DNA of 64,000 nt from Allofranklinella schreckenbergeri (GTDB taxonomy: Bacteria; Pseudomonadota; Gammaproteobacteria; Burkholderiales; Burkholderiaceae_C), in the NCBI RefSeq assembly GCF_003703475.1, contig NZ_RDQM01000001.1:147044-211043 (forward strand), given 5' to 3'. A program made the position numbers and the translations under genes. Positions 26,458-40,384 of this stretch are shown one piece after another; position 1 is the stretch's first letter, and each line of letters opens with the position of its first letter. The notes under the pieces were generated by a model, which was not told the DNA's origin, did no database searches, and saw only the letters and a list, made by a program, of their open reading frames with translations.

Positions 26458-27336
26458 TCAGCCCAAAACGCCTTGGCTGCGTAGCTGGAAAACGTTGCGG
26501 TACACCTGATGCAGGCGATTTCCATAGTTTACTTGCGTATTCTGGCAGTTCATGTACCGAGAAGCTGCAGGCACATCCACAGGGCGCGAACCCACCATAT
26601 CCAGACAGACCTCCACCGCAATCACATCAGCCCAATTGGTCACTTCAGAGGCTAAAGCCCGCTGAATCGTGGGTGTGCCGCTGGCTGCACCAGCCTGAAC
26701 GTAATAGCGAACCTGAAAATCCGCGACATCCTGAATAATGGCTTGAGGCTGCCCCCCCACGCCACTGCAAACCAACTCGTTACCGCGCAAAGCAAAGCGG
26801 CTGATAATTCGAGGGAAATTGGCGCCACCGGAAGAAGTGGCGCCCCCTCCTTCTCCAAGGCAATCTCTAAATAAGCTCCCTGGAGCAGAAGCGCCTGTTA
26901 ATCGTTCTGCATAGTTTTGGTGCCCTACACTCAACGCAAATTCAGTGGCATTAGGCGCATCTATGCCATTAATGATTTGGCTCCATTGGTTATAGCCAAC
27001 CTGAAACGCCACCTTCGTATTCGGCGATAAACTAGCGCTGGTCCCTTGGCCGGTTTCCACATCCAAATTCAGCTCCAACGAACCTGCTTGGCGGATTTGC
27101 TGCCCCAGCACACGGAAAGCATACGAAGCCTGCTGCTGAAGCTGGGCCGCCTCGCTCACCGTAGTGGTCGCCCCACGGGACACTATGACTGCACCCATTG
27201 CCACCGCCACAATCAGCATCCCGATGGTGATACCCACCATCAATTCCACAAGCGTCACGCCAGCTTGATGCCTCACAAAAGCTATTTCAGAATGCTCTCT
27301 TGGCAGGCCCGAAGTTATCAAGGATTTTCGCAACAT
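26458..27336 (-). CDS. pilW: Type IV pilus assembly protein PilW (minor pilin)
   Basis: Prepilin-type N-terminus (GVTLVELMVGITIGMLIVA); size and operon context. Confidence 0.75.
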   Translation of the reverse strand: MLRKSLITSGLPREHSEIAFVRHQAGVTLVELMVGITIGMLIVAVAMGAVIVSRGATTTVSEAAQLQQQASYAFRVLGQQIRQAGSLELNLDVETGQGTSASLSPNTKVAFQVGYNQWSQIINGIDAPNATEFALSVGHQNYAERLTGASAPGSLFRDCLGEGGGATSSGGANFPRIISRFALRGNELVCSGVGGQPQAIIQDVADFQVRYYVQAGAASGTPTIQRALASEVTNWADVIAVEVCLDMVGSRPVDVPAASRYMNCQNTQVNYGNRLHQVYRNVFQLRSQGVLG

Positions 27337-27366
27337 ATCAATCCCCCACCAATAAAAAACTCGATT

Positions 27367-28032
27367 TCAGGAGTTGTTAATCTGTTTCACGCTGCCATCT
27401 GCACAGTAAGGCCGTGCAACGCCTGAGTTTGAGTTGGCAGTGCAGCGCGCCGCCAATTGAATGAATTGAAGATAGCAGGTGCGCCCTGCAGGGCAGGCAA
27501 CGACAGCCCCGCTTGCATTCCGACTGGAAAGCCGAAAATATTTATTGAAATTGGTTTCCTCAGAGACACCAGCAGATTCATTTTCTCTCCAGGAAATCAT
27601 GACGCCAAGCTGGCGATTATTTCCGGCAGATGTCCCGCTTTCATCATTCACAAAAAATACATTTGCATCCGCCAAAGGCAAAATTTCCGTCACATTTTTT
27701 TTCCATTGCTCAATATCCCATTGAGCCAAGGTTGCAGAATCGCACCCATTCGTGCAATTGACCTGCGTCCCATTATCTCCCCAGCCAACCAGATACTTGG
27801 ATGCTGTGCCAGAGGAAAAAGAATTGGGATTCATGCGCAAACGCTCACTCAGGTTTTCAACCAACCGAATAGCTTGCGCTTGCCGCACCGCAGCCTGCGT
27901 ATTGTTCATGGTGCGCATCTGCATACCCAGTATGCCCAGAATGCCTAAAGCCGTCACCAAAACGGCAACCAGGGCCTCAATCAGAGAAACACCGTTTTGG
28001 CGTGCAATGGAGGGGAAATTTGGCTGTTTCAT
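27367..28032 (-). CDS. pilV: Type IV pilus modification protein PilV (minor pilin)
   Basis: Prepilin-type N-terminus (NGVSLIEALVAVLVTALGIL). Start refined to MKQPNFPS. Confidence 0.78.
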   Translation of the reverse strand: MKQPNFPSIARQNGVSLIEALVAVLVTALGILGILGMQMRTMNNTQAAVRQAQAIRLVENLSERLRMNPNSFSSGTASKYLVGWGDNGTQVNCTNGCDSATLAQWDIEQWKKNVTEILPLADANVFFVNDESGTSAGNNRQLGVMISWRENESAGVSEETNFNKYFRLSSRNASGAVVACPAGRTCYLQFIQLAARCTANSNSGVARPYCADGSVKQINNS

Positions 28033-28058
28033 AAATGACTCACCCAATAAGTAGCCAA

Positions 28059-28613
28059 TTAACAAGTCGACCCTGCCGAAGGATGGACGCGAACAGTGCC
28101 GCCTGGGCTGATACAAATATTCATCGCAGAAGGATCGCTCACCGTCTTGCCCGCCGGCGTCACGCTAAAACCAAATGCAGCGCCAAAAGTTCCACGGGAA
28201 TCCACTCTGATCTTTCCGGTATCCGTACCAGTACGCGTAATCGCCACTTTGGCGGGAGCGTCGTAGCGCTGCAAAATGGGCACGCCGCTGTCACAGGCTT
28301 CATCGCCATTGGTATCGACGCAAACCTGCCACCCGCAATTCCATCCATTTGCACTACACGAACCGCTTGGCAAGCTCTCGATCACGGCCCCACCGCGCTT
28401 GATGGCTTCGGAGCGAGCGAAATACAGCGTGGACTGAAAAATTTCGCTGGCTTGACGAACGCGCCAGCGCTCCATCAAGGGAGTGAAGTTGGGCGCTGCA
28501 ATTGCAGCCAGTATTGCGAGAATGGAGATCACCGTCAGCAACTCCACCAGCGTGAAACCTGCTGGCGACTGGATACGGCGAGGCGACAAGTGAAATAAGA
28601 CAGTGGGACGCAT
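28059..28613 (-). CDS. fimT: Type IV minor pilin FimT/FimU (GspH family)
   Basis: Prepilin leader with G|FTLVELLTVISILAILAAIAAP; first gene of the minor-pilin operon. Confidence 0.75.
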   Translation of the reverse strand: MRPTVLFHLSPRRIQSPAGFTLVELLTVISILAILAAIAAPNFTPLMERWRVRQASEIFQSTLYFARSEAIKRGGAVIESLPSGSCSANGWNCGWQVCVDTNGDEACDSGVPILQRYDAPAKVAITRTGTDTGKIRVDSRGTFGAAFGFSVTPAGKTVSDPSAMNICISPGGTVRVHPSAGSTC

Positions 28614-28789: not shown

Positions 28790-30469
28790 TCAAGACTCGT
28801 GACGTTGAAAGCCCTCTTGCAGCGCCGCCCAGCTCAGCCCAAAGCGGGCCAGGTATTTGCGCAGGCGGTCGCTGTCGTTGGCGGTGCTGCGCCGGGTGCG
28901 CGAGTGGTTGAAGAGCTGGCGGCCGGCGTCGGCCAGGCTGGCGCTGCGCTGGCACAGGGCGATAACGGCGCGCAGTTGCAGGCGGTCGAACAGGTCCAGC
29001 GCGGCCAGCCGTTCGGGCCCGAGCAGGGCGTTCAGGCGTGCGTCCAGCGCATCTTCGCCGCTGCCGTGGTTGGTGGCAGTGCTATCGGCGTCATTGCCAG
29101 CGGGCGCAGCGCCGACCCCGGCCTTGCCGTGCCACAGCCATTCGAGGCGGGCGATTTCGGCTTCGACCAGGGCGCTGCCGATGCGGCCGCCTTCGGCCAG
29201 AGTGGCCAGGCGGGTGATGCTGGCGGCCAGGTCGCGGAAGTTGCCGCGCCAGGGCGCCCTGGACGATTGGGCAAAGGCGAGATAGCGCGCCCGCGCCTCG
29301 CTGCTCAAGCGCGCCAGGCGGCCGTCTTCGCTGGCGTGGCGCGCGAGCAGGTGGTCGATGTTGGGCTCGATGTCCTCGGGCCGCTCGGCCAGGCCGGGCA
29401 GGTGGTAGGTCCAGAGGTTGATGCGCGCGAACAAGTCTTCGCGAAAACGCCCGGCGGCTACCTCGGCGCGCAGGTCGCGGTGGGTGCCAGCGATGAGCTG
29501 GAAGTCGCTTTCCACTTCCTGGTCGCTGCCCATCGGGTAGAAGCGTTTTTCTTCCACGGCCTTGAGCAGCATGGCCTGCTCGTCCAGGCCCAGCTCGCCG
29601 ATTTCGTCGAGAAACAGCACCCCGCCATTGGCGCTGCGCAGCAGCCCGGCGCGGTCGGCGGCGGCGCCGGTGAAGGCGCCTTTTTTGTGGCCGAACAGGG
29701 TGGAGGCGGCGCCATCGCCGCGCAGGGTGGCGCAGTTGACTTCGACAAAGGCGCCTTGCACCTGGTGGCGGGCTTTTTTCAGCTCGTACATGCGCCGCGC
29801 CAGATGCGATTTGCCCGCGCCAGTGGGGCCAGCCAGCAGGATGGGCGCGCGCGAGCGCACCGCCACGCGCTCGATTTCGTCGATCAGCGCATTGAAGCGC
29901 GCATTGCGCGTGGCAATGCCGCTTTTGAGGTGCGTGCGCGCCTCGTGCCGGGCCTGACGAAAGCGCTGGGCCAGGGCGTCGTAGCGCGAAAGATCCAGGT
30001 CGATCAGGGTGAAGCTGCCGGGCAGCTGGCCGTTTTGCCGCCGGGGCGGGCTGGTTTGCAGCAGCACGCCGGGGATGAAGCGCGCCTCCACCAGCAGGAA
30101 CAGGCAGATCTGCGCCACGTGGGTGCCGGTGGTGATGTGTACTCGGTAGTCTTCGCGCGCGCTGTCGAAGGGGTAGCTGCGCGCCCAGTCGTACAGGCCG
30201 GCATAGACCTCGCCGAAGTCCCAGGGGTCGCTCACCTCCATCGGGACGAGCTTGACCTGGGTCGCGGGCGACAGCTCGGCAATGTCGGCCAGCACGCGGT
30301 CGGCCAGGCGCTGATAGCGGCTGGCGTAGAACAACTCCAGACGGTCCACCGGCCAGGCCGTTTGCTGCACCAGCGACACCGTGGGCCGCCATTTCTCCCA
30401 CCGGCCCCGGCCGCCGCCTGCATCAAGCTGTGTGCCTAGGTAGCCGATGACGACGTTTTTCTTGCGCAT
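28790..30469 (-). CDS. rtcR: Sigma-54-dependent transcriptional activator RtcR (N-terminal CARF-like sensor domain, AAA+ domain, C-terminal HTH)
   Basis: Collinear with E. coli RtcR over the full length (MRKKNVVIGYLGTQLDAGGGRGRWEKWRPT.., GPTGAGKSHLARR, GAFTGA, ESDFQLIAGT, C-terminal DRLRKYLARFGL). Divergent from a sigma-54 promoter. Confidence 0.9.
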   Translation of the reverse strand: MRKKNVVIGYLGTQLDAGGGRGRWEKWRPTVSLVQQTAWPVDRLELFYASRYQRLADRVLADIAELSPATQVKLVPMEVSDPWDFGEVYAGLYDWARSYPFDSAREDYRVHITTGTHVAQICLFLLVEARFIPGVLLQTSPPRRQNGQLPGSFTLIDLDLSRYDALAQRFRQARHEARTHLKSGIATRNARFNALIDEIERVAVRSRAPILLAGPTGAGKSHLARRMYELKKARHQVQGAFVEVNCATLRGDGAASTLFGHKKGAFTGAAADRAGLLRSANGGVLFLDEIGELGLDEQAMLLKAVEEKRFYPMGSDQEVESDFQLIAGTHRDLRAEVAAGRFREDLFARINLWTYHLPGLAERPEDIEPNIDHLLARHASEDGRLARLSSEARARYLAFAQSSRAPWRGNFRDLAASITRLATLAEGGRIGSALVEAEIARLEWLWHGKAGVGAAPAGNDADSTATNHGSGEDALDARLNALLGPERLAALDLFDRLQLRAVIALCQRSASLADAGRQLFNHSRTRRSTANDSDRLRKYLARFGLSWAALQEGFQRHES

Positions 30470-30591
30470 ATCGAATCTAGATTAAAAGATAGAAATGATG
30501 AATTGATTCGCCAATATTCTATTTTCAGCCATGCAGCCCATCACCCTTGCGCCCTTTCCCGCTTCGGGTCATAAAAATAATTTCTCTTTCA

Positions 30592-30604
30592 AATCAATGG
30601 GTTG
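30592..30604 (+). promoter_or_regulatory. Candidate IHF site (AATCAAtgggTTG) between the rtcR upstream region and the sigma-54 promoter
   Basis: Fits WATCAA-N4-TTR. An AT-rich bend region about 30 bp upstream of -24 is typical of sigma-54 promoters. Confidence 0.4.
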
Positions 30605-30633
30605 AAGATGATTTGCACCCGTTTGGGGCGACC

Positions 30634-30649
30634 TGGCACGGCCTTTGCA
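30634..30649 (+). promoter_or_regulatory. Sigma-54 (-24/-12) promoter TGGCACG-N4-TTGCA, divergent from rtcR
   Basis: Near-perfect match to the TGGCACG-N4-TTGCW consensus, oriented rightward. Predicted TSS near 30660, directly upstream of the tRNA-like elements. Confidence 0.75.
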
Positions 30650-30805
30650 ATTCACCAGAGCGTCAGGCGTATGCACCAGTCGCTCGCAGGCCAGGGTTGG
30701 GGCCAAAGGCCCGCCCTGCCGGTGCCGGTGGCCGCCCGCTGAGGCTGATGAGGCCGACATGGGCGTTGCGCATCCGGTATGCCGCGCGGCGTAGGCGTCT
30801 GACAC

Positions 30806-30861
30806 GGCATGGGCCGTTTGGGGCCACCTTCGTGTCCGGTTCGACTCCGGGCATGCCTCCA
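30806..30861 (+). ncRNA. tRNA-like mini-element: 6-bp acceptor-like stem (GGCATG../..CATGCC), 24-nt connector, perfect T-arm (CCGG-TTCGACT-CCGG), discriminator and CCA; no D or anticodon arms (candidate Y-RNA-like / YrlA-like module)
   Basis: Read directly from the sequence, about 150 nt downstream of the sigma-54 TSS. Too short to be a tRNA. Confidence 0.5.
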
Positions 30862-30932
30862 CTGGTAGCTCAGTTGGATAGAGCAACGTGCTGATAACAC
30901 GTGTGTCGCGGGTTCGACTCCCGCCCATCCTT
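30859..30932 (+). ncRNA. Pseudo-tRNA (tRNA-Ile-GAU-like) with intact D-arm, anticodon arm, variable loop and T-arm (GCGGG-TTCGACT-CCCGC) but a non-pairing acceptor stem and no CCA
   Basis: TAGCTCAGTTGGATAGAGC D-arm, ACGTG-CTGATAA-CACGT anticodon arm, and GGTTCGACTCC T-arm all found. The 5' CCACTGG cannot pair with the 3' CCATCCT, so the element cannot be aminoacylated. Confidence 0.55.
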
Positions 30933-31426
30933 CCCCAGCTGCAAGGCTGGCTACAAGTGAAACGGTCGCAAGACCACCCGCCGAACCGTGGCGGGCCGGG
31001 CAGAGCAGGGCCTTTGGGCCTTGAGCTGCACCGGCCAGCCACACGCCCTGGCGGCTTTGCGCTGGCGGCGTCCGGTTACGTGCTTACACGCAACCGGGCG
31101 CAGGCCGCGGGGCCGCGGCGGCATGGCCAGCCGGGCCGGATGCGCGTGTTTTGTCGCGCCATCCCACCCCGGCCCGCCATGCCCCGCGCCCGCGCCACGC
31201 CAGCCCGTCGCCAGAGCCTGCTCAGCGTCTCGGAGCGAGTGGGCAAGAAGCGGTTTGGGATGGGCTGCAAGGCGCAAAACGCAGCCGGGCCGGTTGGCCC
31301 GGCGAGGCTTTGCAACGCAGCAGATCGCCCAAATCCGCTTCATGGCCCGCCGTGCAGAGACGTTGAACAGGCTCTCGGGCGAGGTTCGGCACCCTTTGAC
31401 GTTGTTGTTGCGAGAGAGAAGAAAAC

Positions 31427-32573
31427 CATGAAAACCTACGGCTACAAAACCTTCCAGGTGAACAAAAACGAGCGCGGCCTGTTGCTGCGCGGCGGCGACT
31501 TCGCGCGCGTGCTGGGCCCCGGCAAGCACCGCATCTGGGCCTTGGGCGAGGCGCTGCAGGTGCAGCGCTTCGGGCAGGACGCGCCAGCCTTCACCCACCC
31601 GCTGGCCGACTACCTGATGGCGCACGAGCCCGAGGTGCTGGCCCAGCACTTCGTGCGCGCCGAGCTGGGCGAATCGGAAGTGGGCTTGCGCTACGAGGAC
31701 GGCCTGCTGGCCGAAGTGCTGCCTCCCGGCACCCGCCGCCTGTACTGGAAGCACCTGCACGAAGTGCGCGTGGAGGTGCTGCCACTGCCGGCTGACGCCC
31801 GCATCGCGCCCGAGCTGGCCGCGCGCCTGCAACAAATGGCCGAGCGCCGCGGCCCGGCCAGCCTGGCCGGCGGCGTGCTGCTGACGCAGGTGCCGCAGTT
31901 CCACACCGGCCTGCTGTGGCTGGACGGTCAGTTGCAGGCCGCGCTGGCGCCCGGCGTGCACGGCTTCTGGCGCTTTGGCCGCAGCCTGGCGGTGGAGGTG
32001 GTGGACCTGCGCGCCCAAACCGCCGAGGTCGCCGGGCAAGACATCCTCACCCGCGACAAAGTCGGCCTGCGCCTGAACCTGGCCGCCGTGTGGCGCTATG
32101 CCGACGTGCAGGCCGCCTTCGCACAACTGCCCAAGCCGGCCGAGCACGTTTACCGCGAGCTGCAATTCGCGCTGCGCGCCGCCGTCGGCCAGCGCACGCT
32201 CGATGTCCTGCTGGACGACAAGGCCGCCATCGACAGCGCCGTGCTGCAAGCCGTGCGCGCCAAGCTCGCCGACTGCGGCATCGCGCTGGAGAGCGTGGGC
32301 GTCAAAGACATCATCCTGCCCGGTGAGATGCGCAGCATCCTGGCGCAAGTGGTCGAGGCCGAAAAGGCCGCCCAGGCCAACGTCATCCGCCGCCGCGAGG
32401 AAACGGCGGCCACCCGCTCCCTGCTCAACACCGCCAAGGTCATGGAAGACAACCCCGTGGCCCTGCGCATGAAAGAGCTGGAAACCCTGGAGCGCGTGGC
32501 CGAGCGCATCGACAAGATCTCCGTCGTGGGCGGGCTGGATCAGGTCTTGAACGGGCTGGTCAAGCTGCGTTGA
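31427..32573 (+). CDS. Cytoplasmic SPFH/band-7 domain protein (stomatin/prohibitin-like C-terminal half, about 190-aa N-terminal extension, no TM helix)
   Basis: RBS agagaag-N6-ATG. The C-terminal half has SPFH features (ILTRDKVGLRLNLAAVWRY..IALESVGVKDIILPGEMRSILAQVVEAEKAAQANVIRRREETAATRSLL). The track ORF 30888..32573 is a 5' over-extension. Confidence 0.75.
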
Positions 32574-32851
32574 AGGGAGGTTGAACGTTGAACGTTCGGC
32601 GTTCAACCTGCCCCGACAGTTTTTTTGACACACAAAGGATTTCAGGGCGCGCTGGCACAGAAGGGAGCGCCACTGCCAAAAATGTTTGTGAACAACCGGC
32701 AGTCCGGGTAACACCGGGTGCGGCAGGCAAGTTGGTTGGCGAGCAAGGTTGAGGATGCAGGTGCTGGCTCCGATGACGGGTCTGTCACTGGCGCGCGTTT
32801 CCAATCGCCGACTGGGCCAGTGGATTCGAACACCCTGGTTGCTGCACTGAT

Positions 32852-32879
32852 GCGGGTTCGAATCCCGTCGCGTCCACCA
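32852..32879 (+). ncRNA. tRNA 3'-end fragment (T-arm GCGGG-TTCGAAT-CCCGT, acceptor 3' strand CGCGTCC, discriminator A, CCA); no matching 5' half
   Basis: A perfect T-loop plus CCA end, but no complementary acceptor 5' strand. A second inverted T-loop-like piece (TGGATTCGAACACC) lies at 32821..32834. Confidence 0.45.
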
Positions 32880-32912
32880 ACACCCACAAGAAAAACACCA
32901 TGAGGCACGCCC

Positions 32913-33683
32913 ATGAAAAGCGCACGTAAACCCAAGCGTACCACAGCGCCAGACTGGACGCCACAGGCCATGGGTCTGGCAGAAGACAAATACCAGGCAG
33001 CCTTGCGCTACCTGTTCGACCGACCTGTGCCTGCCCGGCATGGGCAAGAGTGGTACTGGAACTGGGATGGAACGGAGGCCCCGTTCGACGCCACCCCGCT
33101 GGAGTGGACGCGCATCCAGACGGTGCTGTTTGCCAACGCGGGGCGCGACTTGGCGCCCTACAGCGACGAGCAAGTCGGCATGGGCCTGCACCATGTCATG
33201 AGCAACGATGCGGGCGATATTCCACTGGCCGCCATCGACCCCAGCGTACCGCTGGCCGAAGCCATGCGCATGATGCAGGCCTTCCCCAGGCTCTGGCAGG
33301 ACTGCATCGGCCCGCGCCTGGCGCATGCGCGCACCGCCATCGGCCATGAGCCAGGGCGGCTGGGCTTTGTCTGCTACATGTGGTTCGACGTCTGGCCCAC
33401 TTTCTACCTTGCCAGGCAGCGGTTCGAGAACCTGTCCGCGGTCTCGGCGCGAGAGGGCAAGGTATGGCGCGATGCGATGTGGCACGTGCTCTCGGCCATG
33501 CTGGACATGCCTTGCCGCGCCGTGCAAATCGCCGCCTTGCATGGACTGGGGCATGAGGGAGAGCATCTGCAACGCGAGCGGGAAATCCATGCGCGCATCG
33601 ACGGCTTCATTCAATCACTGCGCGGCCAGGACCAGGAACTGGCCGACTACGCCCGCGCCGCCCGGTGTGGGCAAGTGCTGTGA
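32913..33683 (+). CDS. Hypothetical protein (no recognisable domain)
   Basis: 256-aa ORF in the same orientation as the sigma-54 transcript. Codon usage consistent with the genome. Weak RBS. Confidence 0.4.
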   Translation: MKSARKPKRTTAPDWTPQAMGLAEDKYQAALRYLFDRPVPARHGQEWYWNWDGTEAPFDATPLEWTRIQTVLFANAGRDLAPYSDEQVGMGLHHVMSNDAGDIPLAAIDPSVPLAEAMRMMQAFPRLWQDCIGPRLAHARTAIGHEPGRLGFVCYMWFDVWPTFYLARQRFENLSAVSAREGKVWRDAMWHVLSAMLDMPCRAVQIAALHGLGHEGEHLQREREIHARIDGFIQSLRGQDQELADYARAARCGQVL

Positions 33684-33786
33684 GTACTTGAAGTCGACCA
33701 GCCGTCATGACACTGGGCATGCTTCCTCCGCAACAACAAGCCCGGGCCGGCTTTTGCGGGCGGCGAACAGAGCGTGTGCGGCTTTT

Positions 33787-34086
33787 TCAGGGCGCTTCGC
33801 GCGCCAGCACCGCAGCGGCCCGGGTTTGCCAGCCCTTGCCGGAGGCGCGCCAGCGCGCCAGCGCGTCGGGATCGAGCCGCAGCGTGACGGGCGTTTTGTG
33901 CACGGCCGCCACGCTGCCGACCGGGCGGCCTGCCTTGCGGCGCGCGGCAATGGCCTCGGGCGTGTGCACGGCGGCGGCCTCGCCGCGCGCGGCCTGGGCC
34001 AGCCCGCGCTCCAGCGAAGCCAGCAAGGCGGCGGTGTCGGCGTCCATGCCTTCTTCAATGGCAGGGGAGGTCGGTGTTTTAGACAT
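33787..34086 (-). CDS. Type II antitoxin, BrnA/DUF4415-like (RHH-type)
   Basis: C-terminal motif RLDPDALARWRASGKGWQTRAAAVL matches the GKGYQTRIN signature of BrnA-type antitoxins. Overlaps the upstream toxin gene by 8 nt. Start taken at MSKTPTSP. Confidence 0.6.
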   Translation of the reverse strand: MSKTPTSPAIEEGMDADTAALLASLERGLAQAARGEAAAVHTPEAIAARRKAGRPVGSVAAVHKTPVTLRLDPDALARWRASGKGWQTRAAAVLAREAP

Positions 34087-34405
34087 CGTATTTCTCCGCA
34101 AGGGCGCGCAGCAGGTGCGCGGGAATGTTTTCAATGCGGCCCTTGGTATAAGCCGTGATCAGCACCAGCTCGCCACGGGCATTGCGCACGTAGTAGATCA
34201 CGCGCGCGCCGCCGCGTTTGCCCTGCCCCTTGGCCGCCCAGCGCAGTTTGCGCAGGCCCTTGCTGTGCGGGATCAGATCGCCCGCATCGGGATGGCAGGA
34301 CAACCAGTCAATCAGCGCCCAACGGTCTTGTTCGCTCCAGATGCTGGCGGCGCTGACCTGGAATTCGGGGCTTTCAATGACGGTGAGCATAAATTGATTG
34401 TACAT
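34079..34405 (-). CDS. Type II toxin, RelE/ParE superfamily (HigB-like)
   Basis: 108 aa. Motif ..GGARVIYYVRNARGELVLITAYTKG is typical of RelE/HigB-fold toxins. The toxin precedes the antitoxin (higBA-like order). Confidence 0.65.
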   Translation of the reverse strand: MYNQFMLTVIESPEFQVSAASIWSEQDRWALIDWLSCHPDAGDLIPHSKGLRKLRWAAKGQGKRGGARVIYYVRNARGELVLITAYTKGRIENIPAHLLRALAEKYDV

Positions 34406-34412
34406 TCAATTA

Positions 34413-34432
34413 ATATGAATCGTGAACCGGCG
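34413..34432. promoter_or_regulatory. Imperfect palindrome TTGATTGTACATTCAATTAA in the toxin-antitoxin promoter region (candidate autoregulatory operator)
   Basis: Near-palindrome centred on GTAC, directly upstream of the toxin start on the minus strand. Confidence 0.4.
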
Positions 34433-34556
34433 AAACGGCCCATCCGTTTGACGGTTAAGCCTTCAAGCTGGAAAAACAGCGCCGCGCCCAACGACGCCGC
34501 CCATGGCGTGCGCAGGTGCGTTGCTTTATTGAAGAACGAGAAGCCAATCAACAGCC

Positions 34557-35399
34557 ATGAACGCCATGTCTTCCGCCTTGGCAGCTGCCATTGAGCACGC
34601 CTACCGTGTTTTCAGCGCCTGCCCGCCGCCTGCCGGGCTGCTGGACGTGTGCACGCGCTGCTGCGTCGATCCGGAGGTGGAACTGCAAATGCGTACCCTG
34701 CCGCTGCGGCAACTGGGGCGCGAGCATTTCTTTGACTACAACTTCTCGGCCAAGAGCGAGGTGCAGCCCGCAGCCGAAATCCGGTACCTGCTGCCGCGCA
34801 TGCTGGAGCTGATCGCCCAAGGGGTGGACATTCACCACTCGATAGAGCTTTACTTGGAACGGCTGGGCCGCTGTCCCAGAGGCAGCCTCAGCCCTACGCA
34901 ATGGCTGGCCGTGCAAGCCGTGGCACAGGCATTGTTTGCCGATTGCCTGGCCCGCTATCCGTGGGAGCGCGGCGGGCCTTGGAACGGTTGCACGCTGTTT
35001 GACGTGCTGCGCATGCTGCACATCGGCGGGCTTGACATCCAGCCCTTGCTGGATCTTTGGCTGCGCACCGCCACGCCCCAAGCCACGCTGCATTACGCCA
35101 ACGCGGCCTGGTTCGACTACTGGCTGGACGGGGGGCGCGTCAACAACGCTTTTGTTAAGGATCGGCCCGACTACATCACCTGCGTGGACAAATGGATGCG
35201 CCATGAAGCGCACCGCCTGATCTTCGCGCAACGATTGCTGGCGCTGGAGACGGCGCGCATCCCGCATTTCGATCAATGGAAATGCGGCTGTCGATTCACC
35301 CCCGCACAAGTCATCCAGAACTGCATCGACGCCATGCGCCTGGATGGGCCCGAAAGCGCCCGCCAACAGCGACCGAGCGATGAAAAAAGAAGACCATGA
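34557..35399 (+). CDS. Hypothetical protein, translationally coupled to rtcB (ATGA overlap)
   Basis: 280-aa ORF with no recognised domain. Cys-rich N-terminus (CPPPAGLLDVCTRCC). Its stop overlaps the rtcB start codon. Confidence 0.45.
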   Translation: MNAMSSALAAAIEHAYRVFSACPPPAGLLDVCTRCCVDPEVELQMRTLPLRQLGREHFFDYNFSAKSEVQPAAEIRYLLPRMLELIAQGVDIHHSIELYLERLGRCPRGSLSPTQWLAVQAVAQALFADCLARYPWERGGPWNGCTLFDVLRMLHIGGLDIQPLLDLWLRTATPQATLHYANAAWFDYWLDGGRVNNAFVKDRPDYITCVDKWMRHEAHRLIFAQRLLALETARIPHFDQWKCGCRFTPAQVIQNCIDAMRLDGPESARQQRPSDEKRRP

Positions 35400-36751
35400 A
35401 AAACCAAGAAAACCTGAACCCCGAAGCCATCCGGCAAGAGCGCCTCGCCCGCCGCCTGGCCTCCGCGCAATCGCGCCATGCGCCTGCTGAAGAAAAGCCG
35501 CAGCCCGAGATCGTGGAAATCCAGGGCGAACACGGCCAGCACCTGCAAATGCAGCAAGGCAGTGGCGCGCCCGTGAAGATGTGGACGCAAGGCGTGCCCG
35601 TGGAAGACGAAGCGCGCAAGCAGCTGCTCAACGTGGCCAGCCTGCCCATCGTGTTCAAGCACGTGGCGGTGATGCCCGATGTGCACTACGGCATTGGGGC
35701 AACCATCGGCTCGGTGGTGCCCACGCTCAAAGCCATCATCCCCGCCGCCGTGGGCGTGGACATCGGCTGCGGCATGATGGCCTGCAAGACCACGCTGACG
35801 GCCAGCGACCTGCCCGACAACCTCGCCCCTTTGCGCGCGGCCATCGAAAAAGCCGTGCCGCACGGCATGACGCCCAAAAAATACGGCCGCGACAAGGGCG
35901 GCTGGGAAACCCCGCCCGAGGAAATCGACGCCGCCTGGGCGCGGCTGGTGGATGAGTTCAACGCCATCTGCGACAAGCACCCGCGCATCCGCAGCACCAA
36001 CAACTACAAGCACCTGGGCACGCTGGGCGGCGGCAACCACTTCATCGAAATCTGCCTGGACGAGGCGCAAAGCGTGTGGATCATGCTGCACAGCGGCTCG
36101 CGCGGCGTGGGCAATGCCATCGGCACCCACTTCATCGAGCTGGCCAAGAAAGACGCCGAGCTGCACCAACGCAACCTGCCCGACGCCAATCTGGCCTACT
36201 TCGAGGAAGGCGCGCAGTACTTTGGCGACTACGTGCAGGCCGTGGGCTGGGCGCAAAAGTTTGCCTCCGCCAACCGCGAGGTGATGATGACGCGCGTCAT
36301 CCACGCGCTGCGCAACGTCATCGCCAAGCCCTTCGACACGCATGTGGAAGCGGTCAACTGCCACCACAACTACGTGCAGAAAGAAACGCACTTCGGGCAA
36401 GACGTGTTCGTCACCCGCAAGGGCGCGGTCAACGCCGAAAAGGGGCGGCTGGGCATCATCCCGGGGAGCATGGGCGCCAAAAGCTACATCGTGCGCGGCA
36501 AGGGCAACCCCGACAGCTTCAACAGCTGCAGCCACGGCGCAGGCCGCACCATGAGCCGCACCCAGGCCAAAAAGCAATTCACCGTGGCCGACCAGATCGC
36601 CGCCACCGAAGGCGTGGAATGCCGCAAGGACGAAGCCGTGATCGACGAAATCCCGATGGCCTACAAAGACATCGACGCCGTGATGGCCGCCCAGCGCGAC
36701 CTGGTGGATGTGGTGCACACGCTCAAGCAGGTGCTGTGCGTGAAGGGGTAA
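35396..36751 (+). CDS. rtcB: RNA 3'-phosphate/2',3'-cyclic phosphate ligase RtcB
   Basis: Full-length RtcB (GGGNHFIEI, SHGAGRTMSR, HNYV motifs). No rtcA downstream. Confidence 0.95.
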   Translation: MKNQENLNPEAIRQERLARRLASAQSRHAPAEEKPQPEIVEIQGEHGQHLQMQQGSGAPVKMWTQGVPVEDEARKQLLNVASLPIVFKHVAVMPDVHYGIGATIGSVVPTLKAIIPAAVGVDIGCGMMACKTTLTASDLPDNLAPLRAAIEKAVPHGMTPKKYGRDKGGWETPPEEIDAAWARLVDEFNAICDKHPRIRSTNNYKHLGTLGGGNHFIEICLDEAQSVWIMLHSGSRGVGNAIGTHFIELAKKDAELHQRNLPDANLAYFEEGAQYFGDYVQAVGWAQKFASANREVMMTRVIHALRNVIAKPFDTHVEAVNCHHNYVQKETHFGQDVFVTRKGAVNAEKGRLGIIPGSMGAKSYIVRGKGNPDSFNSCSHGAGRTMSRTQAKKQFTVADQIAATEGVECRKDEAVIDEIPMAYKDIDAVMAAQRDLVDVVHTLKQVLCVKG

Positions 36752-36948: not shown

Positions 36949-37461
36949 CTATAAGCCCAGCATCCTGGCAAGCCAGCCCTTCTGCGGCGCCTCAACGGCG
37001 GCGGGCGCAACCGCCACTGGCTCGGGCTGTGGGGCGGGCGCCAGCCCTTGCTTGATGAGCGCTTTGCGCTGGTAGGCCAGCACCGCCTCCACATAGCCGT
37101 GGTCTTCGTTGCGGATGTGGTTGAACAGCCAGCGCGAGAGCATGCCATGCAGCTCCTCGCTCACATCCTCGCCGCTGTCAAAGCGGCTTTGCATCTCGGC
37201 CACCCTGCGCGTGAACAGCTCGTGCACCTTTTTATGCGGGCCGCTGAAGACGTAGCCTGCCTCCTCGATCAGCGCCTCCTCAAAAGCGAAGTGGGAAATG
37301 GTGTAGTCCACCATCTCCGCAATCACTTCGCCCAGGCGCTGGCGATCGGGCGTTTGCCGCACCTCGTGCAGCATGTTGATGTATTCGACAATGCGCCGAT
37401 GCTGGCCGTCGATTTCGGCAATGCCGGTATCCATATCCGGCGTCCATTCAAGAGTACTCAT
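36949..37461 (-). CDS. Bacteriohemerythrin
   Basis: Hemerythrin HHE cation-binding motifs (IDGQHRRIVEYIN, H..FAFEE, HIRNED). Start refined to MSTLEWTPD; the longer ORF 36949..37821 is an over-extension. Confidence 0.8.
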   Translation of the reverse strand: MSTLEWTPDMDTGIAEIDGQHRRIVEYINMLHEVRQTPDRQRLGEVIAEMVDYTISHFAFEEALIEEAGYVFSGPHKKVHELFTRRVAEMQSRFDSGEDVSEELHGMLSRWLFNHIRNEDHGYVEAVLAYQRKALIKQGLAPAPQPEPVAVAPAAVEAPQKGWLARMLGL

Positions 37462-37633
37462 GACAATGCTGTGGTGAAAACAAAAAGCGCGCACACGCAC
37501 GCATCGGCATGCCACTTTGTGTCGCGGCGCGGATTTTCTTACATTTTTTTGACGTTCTTGCCAATGGCATACCTCGCTGCTCGGAGACTGCCAGCCAGCC
37601 ATCGTGCAGTTGTGGTATGGGATAGCCCCCATC

Positions 37634-38659
37634 ATGCTCAAGCTCACTTTTCTTGGCACATCCGCAGGCGTGCCCACACGCACGCGCAATGTCTCCGCCC
37701 TGGCCGTACATGTCCCCATGACCGGGCCAGGCTGGTACCTGGTCGATTGCGGCGAAGGCACGCAACAGCAATTGCAACGCGCCCATTTATCGCTGCACCA
37801 TCTGGCCGCCGTGTGCATCACCCACGTGCACGGCGACCATTGCTATGGCCTGCCTGGCCTGCTGGCCAGCGCCGGGCTGGGCCAGCGCCAGCGGCCCTTG
37901 CACCTGATTGCCCCGCCGCCCGTGTGGCAGTGGTTGCAGGCCACCCAGCAATGCACGGACTTGCATTTGCCCTATGCCCTGACCTTCACCGACATCGTCA
38001 CGCTGCGCGAGCAGCCCTTGCATCTGGCCGCCAGCGGGCCAACATCACTGCGCCTGAGCGCCCACCCGCAACGGCACCGCTCGCCCAGCCACGCCTTTCG
38101 TTTTGAACTGCAACAGCGCCAGGCCAAGCTCGACGCCGCCGCGCTGCACGCCATCGGCCTGCCCCCAGGCCCCGCGTGGCGCGCGTTGCAAAGCGGGCAG
38201 AGCGTGATGCACCAGGGCCGCCCGTTGCACAGCCACGATTTCGTGCACACCCACACGCGCCACCTGGCTGCCGTGCTGGGCGGCGACAACGCCCAGCCCG
38301 ATGTGCTGCGCAGCGCCTGCCAAGGTGCGCAACTGCTGGTGCATGAGGCCACCTACAGCCAGGCCGCGCTGCAAAAAGCCGGGCCAAACCCCATGCACAG
38401 CAGCGCGCACGCGGCTGCCAGCTTCGCCCAGTCGGCCAACCTGCCCAATCTCATCCTCACCCACTTCAGCCCACGTCACCACAGCCAGGCCGAGCAACGC
38501 CTGCTCATGCAAGAGGTACGCGCTGCCTACGGTGGCAACGCCTTTTTGGCACAAGACTTTGATCAGTTCACGCTGGATTTCGATGGCGGCCTGCACCGAC
38601 ACACCCTGCCGGCGCAACCGGGCACGCAGCCCACAAGCGCCTGCGCACAACCGCGATAG
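37634..38659 (+). CDS. rnz: Ribonuclease Z / RNase BN (metallo-beta-lactamase fold, tRNA 3'-processing endonuclease)
   Basis: MLKLTFLGTSAGVPTRTRNVSA N-terminus and HVHGDH zinc motif. About 340 aa, short-form RNase Z. Confidence 0.8.
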   Translation: MLKLTFLGTSAGVPTRTRNVSALAVHVPMTGPGWYLVDCGEGTQQQLQRAHLSLHHLAAVCITHVHGDHCYGLPGLLASAGLGQRQRPLHLIAPPPVWQWLQATQQCTDLHLPYALTFTDIVTLREQPLHLAASGPTSLRLSAHPQRHRSPSHAFRFELQQRQAKLDAAALHAIGLPPGPAWRALQSGQSVMHQGRPLHSHDFVHTHTRHLAAVLGGDNAQPDVLRSACQGAQLLVHEATYSQAALQKAGPNPMHSSAHAAASFAQSANLPNLILTHFSPRHHSQAEQRLLMQEVRAAYGGNAFLAQDFDQFTLDFDGGLHRHTLPAQPGTQPTSACAQPR

Positions 38660-38739: not shown

Positions 38740-39447
38740 ATGAGCCAAAACCACGATACCCCCACACGCCCGGCAGCCTCGCCCATCCCCGCAACCGCGC
38801 CAAGCGCATTCCCCGCCGACATCTACACCGAGCCACGCGGGGATGTGGACACACTGGCCAATCTGGGGCCGCTGGCACGCATGGCCGGCGTCTGGCAAGG
38901 CACGCGCGGGGTGGATGTCAAGCCCAAAGCGCAGGGGCCGAAAACCCAAGACTATGTTGAGCGCATCGAGCTGCAACCCATCGACGCACAAACCAATGGC
39001 CCGCAGTTGTTCTACGGTTTGCGCTACCACACCCACATCACCAAGCCCGATCAAGTCAAGACCTACCACGACCAAACCGGCCATTGGCTGTGGGAACCTG
39101 CCACGCACACCGTCATCCACACCTTGAGTATTCCGCGTGGCATGGTGGTGATGGCGGGCGGCATCGTCGCCCCCGATGCCGATGAGTTCGAGCTGGTTGC
39201 GCGCCTGGGCGACCCGGTCTTTGGCATCTGCTCCAACCCGTTTCTGGACCACGCCTTCAAAACCGTGGAGTTCCGCATCCAAGTCGGCTTCAACGCCGAC
39301 GGCTCCTGGTGGTACGACGAAGATACGGTGATGCAAATCCTGGGGCAAAGCGAGCTGTTTCACCACACCGACCGCAACCACCTGACCAAAATCGCCGATG
39401 CCACCCCCAACCCCCTGGCGTTGGCGGCACAGCAAGGTGCGCAATAA
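38740..39447 (+). CDS. Heme-binding beta-barrel (nitrobindin/THAP4-like, DUF1794) domain protein
   Basis: LGPLARMAGVWQGTRG motif and an overall length consistent with the nitrobindin-like lipocalin fold. Pro/Ala-rich N-terminus. Confidence 0.5.
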   Translation: MSQNHDTPTRPAASPIPATAPSAFPADIYTEPRGDVDTLANLGPLARMAGVWQGTRGVDVKPKAQGPKTQDYVERIELQPIDAQTNGPQLFYGLRYHTHITKPDQVKTYHDQTGHWLWEPATHTVIHTLSIPRGMVVMAGGIVAPDADEFELVARLGDPVFGICSNPFLDHAFKTVEFRIQVGFNADGSWWYDEDTVMQILGQSELFHHTDRNHLTKIADATPNPLALAAQQGAQ

Positions 39448-39538: not shown

Positions 39539-40384
39539 ATGCAGCCCTCCCTGCTGTGCGAACACCGCGTCGATCCTGAGCAACGCCAGCGCATTCTCGA
39601 GGCCCTGGCGCAGATTGAGCGCACGCACGACGTGCGCGTACTGTTTGCATGCGAGTCCGGTAGCCGCGCCTGGGGCTTTGCCTCGCCCGACAGCGACTAC
39701 GACGTGCGCTTTATCTACGTGCACCGCCTGCCCTGGTACGTCAGCGTAATGGCGCAGCGCGATGTGATTGAGCTGCCCATGGACGCTGTGCTGGATGTCA
39801 ACGGCTGGGATTTGCGCAAAGCCCTGGGCTTGCTGCACCAATCCAACCCCACGCTGCTGGAGTGGTTGCGCTCGCCCATCGTCTATCGGCAGGACGAGGC
39901 CGCCATGGCCGATTTGCACGCGCTGGCGCACACGCATTTCTCGCGCGTGCGCGGCTGGTACCACTACGCCAGCATGGCGAAAAAGAACTTCCGCGAATAC
40001 CTGCAAGGCCCGCAGGTGCGCACCAAGAAATACCTGTACGTGCTGCGCCCGCTGCTGGCCGCGCGCTGGATTGAGCAGCACGCGACAGGCACGCCGCCCA
40101 TGGTGTTTGCCGAGCTGGCGCGCCAGACGCTGGATGCGCAGCGCGACGCCGCGCTGCTGGAGGCGATCAACGATTTGCTGGCCCTCAAGATGCGCGCTGG
40201 CGAAGCGGCTTTAGGCCCGCGCCGCCCGGCGCTGCACGCCTTCATCACCCAAGAGCTGGAGCGCCACGCCGCCCATGCGCTGCAAGCGCCGGCTCCGAGC
40301 GGCGACGCTTCGGCTTTGGACGCCTTTCTCTATCGCCATGCTTGCCGCTTTGAAGCCCAGGCGACGACGCATGACAGCCCCTGA
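39539..40384 (+). CDS. Predicted nucleotidyltransferase (Pol-beta superfamily, PF10127-like)
   Basis: GSRAWGFASPDSDYDVRFIY matches the GS..(D/E)xD nucleotidyltransferase motif. 281 aa. Confidence 0.55.
   Translation: MQPSLLCEHRVDPEQRQRILEALAQIERTHDVRVLFACESGSRAWGFASPDSDYDVRFIYVHRLPWYVSVMAQRDVIELPMDAVLDVNGWDLRKALGLLHQSNPTLLEWLRSPIVYRQDEAAMADLHALAHTHFSRVRGWYHYASMAKKNFREYLQGPQVRTKKYLYVLRPLLAARWIEQHATGTPPMVFAELARQTLDAQRDAALLEAINDLLALKMRAGEAALGPRRPALHAFITQELERHAAHALQAPAPSGDASALDAFLYRHACRFEAQATTHDSP

Follow-up and report, generated by a model that had tools for sequence, protein, structure and literature searches.

We analysed a 64-kb stretch of the Allofranklinella schreckenbergeri genome (contig NZ_RDQM01000001.1; hereafter the window), identifying its protein genes with Pfam and NCBIfam. 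Between positions 28790 and 36751 lies an RNA-repair locus in which rtcR diverges from a sigma-54 promoter, a structured leader RNA, a gene for an SPFH (Band-7) protein, a second structured RNA of 235 nt, two open reading frames (ORFs) and the RNA ligase gene rtcB, with a toxin-antitoxin pair embedded on the opposite strand. The features of this locus are as follows:

28790-30469, minus strand: rtcR (Pfam PF06956 (RtcR), E=1.3e-78; Sigma54_activat, E=1.8e-50), with an N-terminal CARF-type sensor domain
30592-30604, plus strand: IHF-consensus site AATCAATGGGTTG, ~30 nt upstream of the -24 element, an exact match to WATCAANNNNTTR
30634-30649, plus strand: sigma-54 promoter TGGCACGGCCTTTGCA (-24 TGGCAC, -12 TTGCA), as read from the sequence
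30681-30786, plus strand: 5′ domain of the leader, a three-way-junction RNA with conserved motifs CCGGUGC and AUGCCGC (alignment A5 and RNAalifold)
30806-30861, plus strand: tRNA-like module 1, a mini-tRNA with acceptor-like stem GGCAUG/CAUGCC, short hairpin, T arm and UCCA tail
30862-30928, plus strand: tRNA-like module 2, a cloverleaf pseudo-tRNA with a GAU anticodon-like loop (Rfam tRNA match)
31428-32573, plus strand: SPFH/Band-7 (slipin-family) gene, 381 aa (Pfam Band_7, E=2.2e-30)
32645-32879, plus strand: 235-nt 'giant tRNA-like' RNA, with a covariation-supported structure (alignment A2)
32913-33683, plus strand: ORF256, no family match
33787-34134, minus strand: BrnA antitoxin gene (Pfam BrnA_antitoxin, E=2.6e-13)
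34079-34405, minus strand: RelE-like toxin gene (Pfam PF06296, E=0.0025, 18.4 bits, below the 27-bit cut-off)
34557-35399, plus strand: ORF280, no family match
35396-36751, plus strand: rtcB, 3′-phosphate/5′-OH RNA ligase (Pfam RtcB, E=6.4e-130)

We are confident that this is an RtcR/sigma-54-controlled RNA-repair operon of the Band-7/b7a-tRNA/RtcB/RlaP type. A first-pass annotation, made from the sequence without database searches, had rightly taken it for an RNA-repair locus driven by RtcR and sigma-54, and rtcR, the promoter, the IHF site, the leader, the SPFH gene, the ORFs, the BrnA/RelE pair and rtcB all lie where it had placed them. It had also called the architecture undescribed, a view that fails because Wang et al. 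(bioRxiv 10.1101/312249) attribute the same combination, a Band-7/b7a-tRNA/RtcB (+RlaP) system, to a 2016 prediction by Burroughs and Aravind. The features of that system (an SPFH gene beside rtcB, a tRNA-like non-coding RNA beside the Band-7 gene, RlaP, and RtcR/sigma-54) are all present in the window and in ~50 of 80 related loci. Beyond them, the window holds the 235-nt RNA, the leader 5′ domain, the mini tRNA-like module and ORF256/ORF280, and is without RtcA. As companions of the system, the 235-nt RNA, the leader 5′ domain and ORF256/ORF280 appear to be new; Burroughs and Aravind (2016) may already cover some of them.

Relatives were collected by scanning one genome per species, which yielded at least 597 loci with SPFH relatives; the counts given here come from the best 80. 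RtcR lay divergently upstream of the SPFH gene in 52 of the 73 loci with enough flank, RtcB lay downstream in 55 of the 66 where the flank allows, and a tRNA T-arm motif preceded the SPFH gene in 78 of 78. Among the 80 loci, RlaP was found in 26 (directly after rtcB), RtcA in 33 (at the operon end) and a treble-clef zinc protein (PF13451) in 23. Taxa with such SPFH loci include Comamonadaceae, Burkholderia, Ralstonia, Rhodocyclaceae, Thiobacillus and Pseudomonas, the architecture being shared by hundreds of genomes of Burkholderiales, Rhodocyclales and Pseudomonas. The SPFH gene, leader, 235-nt RNA, ORF256 and ORF280 are found alongside Rtc or Ro60 genes across many genera. Neither RtcA nor Ro60 (Rsr) gave a tblastn match anywhere in the 64-kb window, so the absence of both noted in the first pass is borne out there. 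For RtcA it does not extend to the type, given rtcA in the 33 related loci: this lineage is peculiar in having lost RtcA locally.

The predicted near-consensus sigma-54 promoter has strong comparative support: of 33 related rtcR-SPFH intergenic regions compared, every one has an equivalent TGGCAC-N5-yyGCA element in the corresponding position. The IHF-like site also recognised in the first pass matches the consensus exactly; as a consensus match only, it is one of three in the whole window against 0.62 expected. In Salmonella, the signal that activates RtcR is a tRNA fragment or nicked tRNA ending in a 2′,3′-cyclic phosphate (PMC7790460, PMC10159003).

Two structured RNAs

Conservation across genera extends from the promoter to ~30930. 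In alignment A5, assessed with RNAalifold and by counting pairs, 95.5% of cells were paired compared with 38-49% in controls in which the partners were slid, compensatory changes occurred in 26 of 44 pairs, and the covariation score was 0.435 versus at most 0.11 in the controls. Helices 1-3 of the 5′ domain were 92-97% paired, with compensatory changes in 12 of 21 pairs; this domain (30681-30786) has no Rfam match at E<=10.

The two tRNA-like elements that the first pass had placed in the leader are supported by covariation, and the second also by an Rfam tRNA match. In module 1, the T-arm hairpin covaries and the acceptor-like stem occurs in compensatory variants among loci (GGCAAG/CTTGCC, GGCACG/CGTGCC, GGTCTG/CAGACC and GGCGCGG/CCGCGCC); in Comamonadaceae this stem is followed by NCCA and then at once by module 2. 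The Rfam tRNA model matches module 2 at 30863-30927 with 48.9 bits (gathering score 29). Its D arm is invariant, and its anticodon and acceptor stems covary. ARAGORN called no tRNA or transfer-messenger RNA (tmRNA) anywhere in the window; in other loci it types the module 2 anticodon as Thr, Ile, Arg or Leu, and elsewhere the loop is a tetraloop. The anticodon is thus not conserved. In the window, module 2 has 3-4 acceptor base pairs only and is without CCA, and the short acceptor stem, the lack of an ARAGORN call and the variable anticodon or tetraloop together rule it out as a canonical tRNA. Most probably, module 2 is the 'b7a-tRNA' of Burroughs and Aravind. The Rfam YrlA model also aligns at 30804-30912, at 30.7 bits and therefore below its gathering score of 69, because the T arm of module 1 precedes the D arm of module 2, which is the order of the permuted YrlA fold. 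In Pseudomonas loci both modules are full tRNA-like units, and ARAGORN types module 1 as a tRNA of undetermined type.

Between module 2 and the SPFH start, the spacer (30940-31427) is very GC-rich and measures ~490 nt here versus ~250 nt in relatives; the long ORFs listed on both of its strands look like composition artefacts. Further T-arm motif matches at 5617 and 61575 were set aside as looking like chance, because they fall outside the locus and have no ARAGORN or Rfam tRNA call.

Downstream of the SPFH gene, the first-pass annotation had described tRNA 3′-end fragments. The sequence is present, but it is not a set of scraps: it is the 3′ part of the conserved 235-nt RNA, which emerged from a comparison of SPFH-rtcB spacers. 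Window positions 32645-32879 are nearly identical in Variovorax, Rhizobacter and one Gallionellaceae genome, the RNA is also found in the close relative Vandammella, and a pattern scan of metagenomes added ~80 members of several sequence types. As members were gathered with an exact 22-base pattern, the invariance of GGCGCGCGUUUC is an ascertainment artefact and the family is probably larger. The acceptor stem lies outside the search pattern. Wherever the upstream sequence of a member reaches far enough, the 3′ strand that follows the T arm has a perfect 7-nt complement, beginning with GGG, at a distance of 206-249 nt on its 5′ side, and the stem varies as GGGCGCG/CGCGUCC, GGGCACG/CGUGUCC, GGGCGUG/CACGUCC and GGGGCUG/CAGUCCC.

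Across the 54 sequences of alignment A2, 96.4% of cells were paired versus 35-46% in slid controls, 37 of 64 pairs showed compensatory changes, and 0 of 500 shuffles reached any of the observed measures. On this comparative model, the 235-nt RNA has the topology of a tRNA. Its 5′ part comprises a 7-bp acceptor stem, two linker bases and a 5-bp D-arm-like hairpin with a GGG-containing loop, followed after one base by a 5-bp stem closing a ~29-nt loop. A structured insert of ~165 nt comes next, closed by an 8-bp long-range helix with covariation in eight of eight pairs, and the 3′ part consists of four bases, a canonical T arm, the acceptor 3′ strand and an encoded ACCA. The acceptor stem and T arm are 100% paired, with G3·U70 in 51 of the 54 sequences and G3·C70 in 3.

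No Rfam family accounts for the 235-nt RNA, the sole hit being a local alignment to the tmRNA model that reaches 22.8 bits where the gathering score is 47, and our literature searches found no RNA of this kind described in Rtc loci. A tRNA split by a group I intron was rejected on two grounds: the anticodon-stem-like helix pairs locally (columns 29-33 with 63-67), and no other Rfam family, hence no intron model, appears at E<=10. The RNA has the tRNA-like domain of a tmRNA but no conserved tag frame, ARAGORN calls none, and the Rfam match is below the gathering score. Nor is it a Y RNA, as its ends pair into an acceptor stem where a Y RNA would have a Ro-binding stem, and it co-occurs with true YrlA in Variovorax paradoxus.

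We analysed the genomic context of 77 metagenomic members. All homologues on its downstream flank shared the strand of the RNA. Its upstream neighbours were SPFH (29), Ro60 (17) and divergent RtcR (6), and its downstream neighbours were RtcB (25), ORF280 (17), ORF256 (6) and Ro60 (6); three members had at least 1 kb of upstream flank and no recognised upstream neighbour. The Ro60 neighbours were verified by their Pfam TROVE and vWA_Ro60 domains. The 235-nt RNA occurs only in Rtc loci, beside SPFH or beside Ro60 and Y RNAs, and is a separate, portable module found with either scaffold. In V. paradoxus CP138515 the order is RtcR, Ro60, YrlA Y RNAs, 235-nt RNA, an ORF256 homologue, RtcB, zf_Tbcl, RlaP and RtcA, and YrlA scores 70.6 bits, at or above the Rfam gathering score. 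From this gene order, the 235-nt RNA is neither a Y RNA nor the leader cloverleaf, and represents a third RNA module of Rtc loci.

Several individual loci add to this picture. Between rsr and the 235-nt RNA of V. paradoxus CP138515 (comparison locus L202, 5196-5740) are about four tandem Y-RNA-like units with GCGAAUGC...CUUGUCGC stems, one at the YrlA gathering score and another at 31 bits. One metagenomic locus (L122) unites RtcR, leader, SPFH, 235-nt RNA and Ro60, placing both scaffolds in one locus. In two others (L143 and L176), RtcB and the 235-nt RNA, in one order or the other, come after RtcR and before leader-like modules and SPFH; L143 also has RtcA. Two IMG/VR 'viral' contigs also carry the RNA (L206, 8007-8204; L207, 2984-3215); the second, an 85-kb contig on which it accompanies RtcR and Ro60, may represent a prophage-borne copy or a misclassified contig.

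Proteins of the locus and neighbouring genes

In the SPFH protein, Band_7 spans residues 154-325 and is preceded by an N-terminal domain of ~150 aa of unknown fold. The maximum Kyte-Doolittle score over 19 residues is 1.15, with no transmembrane helix or hydrophobic segment predicted, in agreement with the first-pass description of a cytoplasmic SPFH protein. The C-terminal half is stomatin-like: positions 185-358 of the family profile align with PDB stomatin structures (E=1.6e-23), which are multi-chain (16-chain) assemblies. More than 7,800 homologues were found, annotated 'slipin family protein'.

ORF256 and ORF280 have no match in Pfam, NCBIfam, PADLOC or PDB sequences. ORF256 is 100% identical to a protein of A. 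schreckenbergeri (Comamonadaceae). AlphaFold2 models of the two are confident (predicted local distance difference test scores of 88 and 92), and both are read as solenoid-like proteins of alpha-helical repeats. ORF256 is a predicted alpha-solenoid (HEAT/ARM-like) accessory protein without a known family, and ORF280 a predicted all-alpha accessory protein, likewise without one, that has invariant CxxCC and His residues. The two are not homologous to each other (hhalign probability 0.2%), and have 260 and 38 homologues, respectively. Searches anchored on these homologues land again in Rtc or Ro60 loci: V. paradoxus has the order given above for ORF256, in Roseateles the order is Ro60, Y-like RNA and ORF280, and Vandammella and a second Allofranklinella strain share the order SPFH, RNA, ORF256, further genes, ORF280 and RtcB. 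Elsewhere, the occupant of this slot is a treble-clef zinc protein, a SUKH protein or DUF4275, depending on the taxon. We read ORF256 and ORF280 as lineage-specific adaptor or immunity-like accessories of modules that combine a scaffold with RNA.

The antisense toxin-antitoxin pair of the first-pass annotation is present, with a clear BrnA match and a RelE-like match below its cut-off; the toxin has no NCBIfam or PADLOC match. On the minus strand, a sigma-70-like promoter match for the pair spans 34426-34397. When 200 comparison loci from genomes and metagenomes were screened, none had a BrnA or RelE homologue. A different A. schreckenbergeri strain has a truncated toxin, additional small ORFs and a HEAT-repeat gene after rtcB, and the Vandammella slot includes an RNase Z-like gene and an ADP-ribosylglycohydrolase. 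On account of the strain-variable toxin, the extra ORFs and the Vandammella slot genes, the SPFH-rtcB region is an indel hot spot, and the toxin-antitoxin pair sits in its strain-variable part.

The rtcB gene begins 2.8 kb downstream of the SPFH gene, and the overlap of the ORF280 stop with its ATG (ATGA), described in the first pass, can be read in the sequence. From this coupled start (35396), RtcB has an N-terminal extension of ~50 aa that is common to Ottowia homologues. In the second Allofranklinella strain (L208), the annotated rtcB start lies ~180 nt past ORF280, and because that gene call begins later than the coupled start, the true start is uncertain. Past rtcB, the window contains:

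36949-37413, minus strand: bacteriohemerythrin gene, convergent with rtcB
37604-38659, plus strand: RNase Z-family metallo-beta-lactamase gene (TIGR02651, E=1e-69, 235 bits, below the 293-bit cut-off)
38740-39447, plus strand: THAP4/nitrobindin-like haem-binding protein gene, between the RNase Z-like gene and RlaP
39539-40384, plus strand: RlaP, a Pol-beta-fold nucleotidyltransferase of RNA-repair systems (Pfam PF10127, E=1.5e-93)

The RNase Z-like and Pol-beta nucleotidyltransferase genes reported downstream in the first pass are thus both there, the former on a sub-cut-off match. Pfam describes the RlaP family as 'RNA repair pathway DNA polymerase beta family'; in the window, RlaP lies 2.8 kb past rtcB and beyond the convergent gene. 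The RNase Z-like, THAP4-like and RlaP genes probably form a separate transcription unit in the window, because the convergent hemerythrin gene and a weak terminator-like site 3′ of rtcB intervene. An RNase Z-like homologue follows rtcB in seven comparison loci (L003, L093, L143, L157, L159, L181 and L183) and, in Vandammella, sits within the slot; the RNase Z-family protein is probably associated with the RNA-repair system. The second Allofranklinella strain keeps both the hemerythrin and the THAP4/nitrobindin-like genes. On its other side, rtcR is flanked by type IV minor-pilin genes (26458-28613, minus strand; GspH/FimT-like and PilV/PilW-like, with N-terminal methylation motifs), a neighbourhood also seen in Vandammella and the other Allofranklinella strain (L204 and L208).

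Possible roles of the tRNA-like RNAs

A close described counterpart is the Salmonella rsr-yrlB-yrlA-rtcB-rtcA operon, which has a divergent rtcR, a sigma-54 promoter, a scaffold with a tRNA-mimic RNA, and induction by damaged tRNA (PMC7790460). The window shares the divergent rtcR, the sigma-54 promoter and the placement of scaffold and tRNA-mimic RNA upstream of rtcB, but is without Ro60 and matches YrlA only below threshold. In addition, its tRNA mimics are tandem, unpermuted units, whereas YrlA is a permuted tRNA domain on a Ro-binding stem. The first-pass view that SPFH and tRNA-mimic RNAs hold the place of Ro60 and Y RNAs was right.

Two further systems offer points of comparison. Pseudomonas aeruginosa PAO1 has an RtcR-regulated operon, PA4582-rtcB-PA4584-rtcA (PMC8619066). 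Other Pseudomonas genomes have the order leader, SPFH, zf_Tbcl, RtcB, RlaP and RtcA, with a small treble-clef zinc protein in the slot; unlike the window, these loci have two full tRNA-like modules and RtcA, and no 235-nt RNA. PA4582 of PAO1 is presumably an SPFH protein. In Anabaena, deletion of trcR derepresses a slipin gene, rtcB and a tRNA array together, and translational stress reportedly derepresses the TrcR regulon (PMC10272220). That regulon differs from the window in its use of a repressor, with no RtcR/sigma-54, and its genes are not contiguous in Anabaena. In nine of our comparison loci (L005, L008, L009, L011, L012, L022, L037, L038 and L055), 2-16 canonical tRNA genes precede the leader and SPFH gene, usually followed by rtcB; these arrays are on the same strand, ~1.3-4.3 kb upstream of SPFH, with no rtcR directly upstream.

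As a whole, the locus is best explained, in our view and with modest confidence, as an RtcR/sigma-54 RNA-repair operon whose released tRNA-like RNAs act in an SPFH ribonucleoprotein (RNP) that aids RtcB. Transcription would start near 30660 and produce a single transcript with a ~270-nt structured leader, SPFH, the 235-nt RNA, the two accessory proteins and rtcB. The tRNA-processing enzymes would excise the tRNA-like RNAs, with RNase P acting at the base of each acceptor stem and 3′ trimming proceeding to the encoded CCA. Together with oligomeric SPFH, the released RNAs could form an RNP that helps RtcB (and RlaP) to find or handle broken tRNA-shaped substrates, a role modelled on that proposed for Ro60 and the YrlA Y RNA of rsr-yrlBA-rtcBA operons. 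The proposal that the tRNA-like RNAs and SPFH constitute an RNP cofactor for RtcB is the most tentative element, drawn by analogy, and may well prove wrong.

Several observations count against this explanation. The 235-nt RNA is present in 6 of 81 SPFH-type loci only, and so is not required for SPFH-RtcB function. Its single-sequence folding energy is no better than that of shuffled sequences (z=0.19); with no thermodynamic support, the case for its structure is one of covariation alone. For both RNAs the evidence is at the sequence level, as covariation and co-location, and SPFH-RNA binding is a proposal; moreover, the b7a-tRNA had never been experimentally validated as of 2018 (bioRxiv 10.1101/312249). 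An antisense toxin-antitoxin pair with its own promoter-like site intervenes between the 235-nt RNA and rtcB, which makes read-through to rtcB a presumption. Finally, RlaP and the RNase Z-like gene are cut off from rtcB by the convergent hemerythrin gene and terminator-like sites.

The tRNA-like RNAs could instead be decoys, mass-produced on damage as competitive inhibitors or sponges for ribotoxins that target tRNA, such as anticodon and acceptor-stem nucleases. The unconserved anticodon loop of module 2, often a tetraloop, would resist anticodon nucleases, and the variable slot of other loci holds immunity-type proteins (SUKH and DUF4275). However, decoys would leave unexplained both the strict pairing with a scaffold, SPFH or Ro60, and the elaborate conserved domains that are not tRNA-like (the 5′ junction in the leader and the ~165-nt insert within the 235-nt RNA), and no toxin gene is linked except the strain-variable pair. 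We consider this unlikely.

A role like that of tmRNA (SsrA) is less probable still. The 235-nt RNA would be charged with alanine through G3·U70, A73 and CCA and would act in ribosome rescue or tagging, or its aminoacylation would serve as a signal, in parallel to RtcB. It shares with tmRNA a 7-bp acceptor stem formed by its ends, the predominant G3·U70, an A73-type discriminator, the encoded CCA, the T arm and a long-range helix placed like tmRNA P2, and its tRNA-like part gives a local alignment with the Rfam tmRNA model; YrlA is without such an acceptor stem (Chen et al. 2014, PMC4201824). Against this, the RNA has no conserved frame or stop, the sole invariant stop triplet lying in a hairpin loop with a variable frame upstream. 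In addition, neither ARAGORN nor Rfam at its gathering score recognises a tmRNA, three members have G3·C70, and the catalogued locus genes include none resembling that of SmpB, at which no search was aimed. The RNA further differs from tmRNA in its smaller size (206-249 nt), its D-arm-like hairpin and anticodon-arm-like stem, and its location inside Rtc operons.

We judge it comparably improbable that the RNAs act mainly in cis, with the leader and intergenic RNA setting the ratio of SPFH to RtcB through attenuation, stabilisation or the entry of RNase P/E. tRNA-like structures are RNase P processing signals in polycistronic mRNAs, and the RNAs here lie on the coding strand within the operon transcript, directly after the promoter and between genes. 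Yet the structure of the 235-nt RNA is kept whether it follows SPFH, Ro60 and Y RNAs, the promoter directly, or RtcB; the encoded CCA and precise acceptor stem are marks of a released RNA, not of an attenuator; and there is no intrinsic terminator 3′ of the leader. The random insertion of unrelated genes between rtcR and rtcB, a scenario raised in the first pass, fits the BrnA/RelE-like pair and the indel hot spot before rtcB, but is refuted for every other element by the recurrence of SPFH, leader, 235-nt RNA, ORF256 and ORF280 with Rtc or Ro60 genes across genera, and we regard it as very improbable.

An RtcR/sigma-54 operon with an SPFH RNP aiding RtcB therefore remains our preferred explanation, and the locus bears on what bacterial RtcB repairs and on what the neighbouring tRNA-mimic RNAs do. 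It provides two alignable RNA targets, the two-module tRNA-like leader with its 5′ domain and the 235-nt RNA with the hallmarks of an alanine-acceptor end. That the 235-nt RNA accompanies either scaffold, SPFH or Ro60, argues for a shared RNA-centred step in Rtc repair, which is testable in culturable organisms such as V. paradoxus. A more speculative proposal, which we think doubtful, is that the 235-nt RNA represents an uncatalogued class of tRNA-like RNA that is released, alanylated or otherwise handled by the tRNA machinery, and acts in trans with RtcB and the scaffold; it might, for instance, provide a platform or template on which broken tRNAs are re-joined, or rescue damaged ribosomes. 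If the 235-nt RNA were aminoacylated or bound RtcB, it would constitute a direct link between RNA repair and the tRNA and translation machinery.

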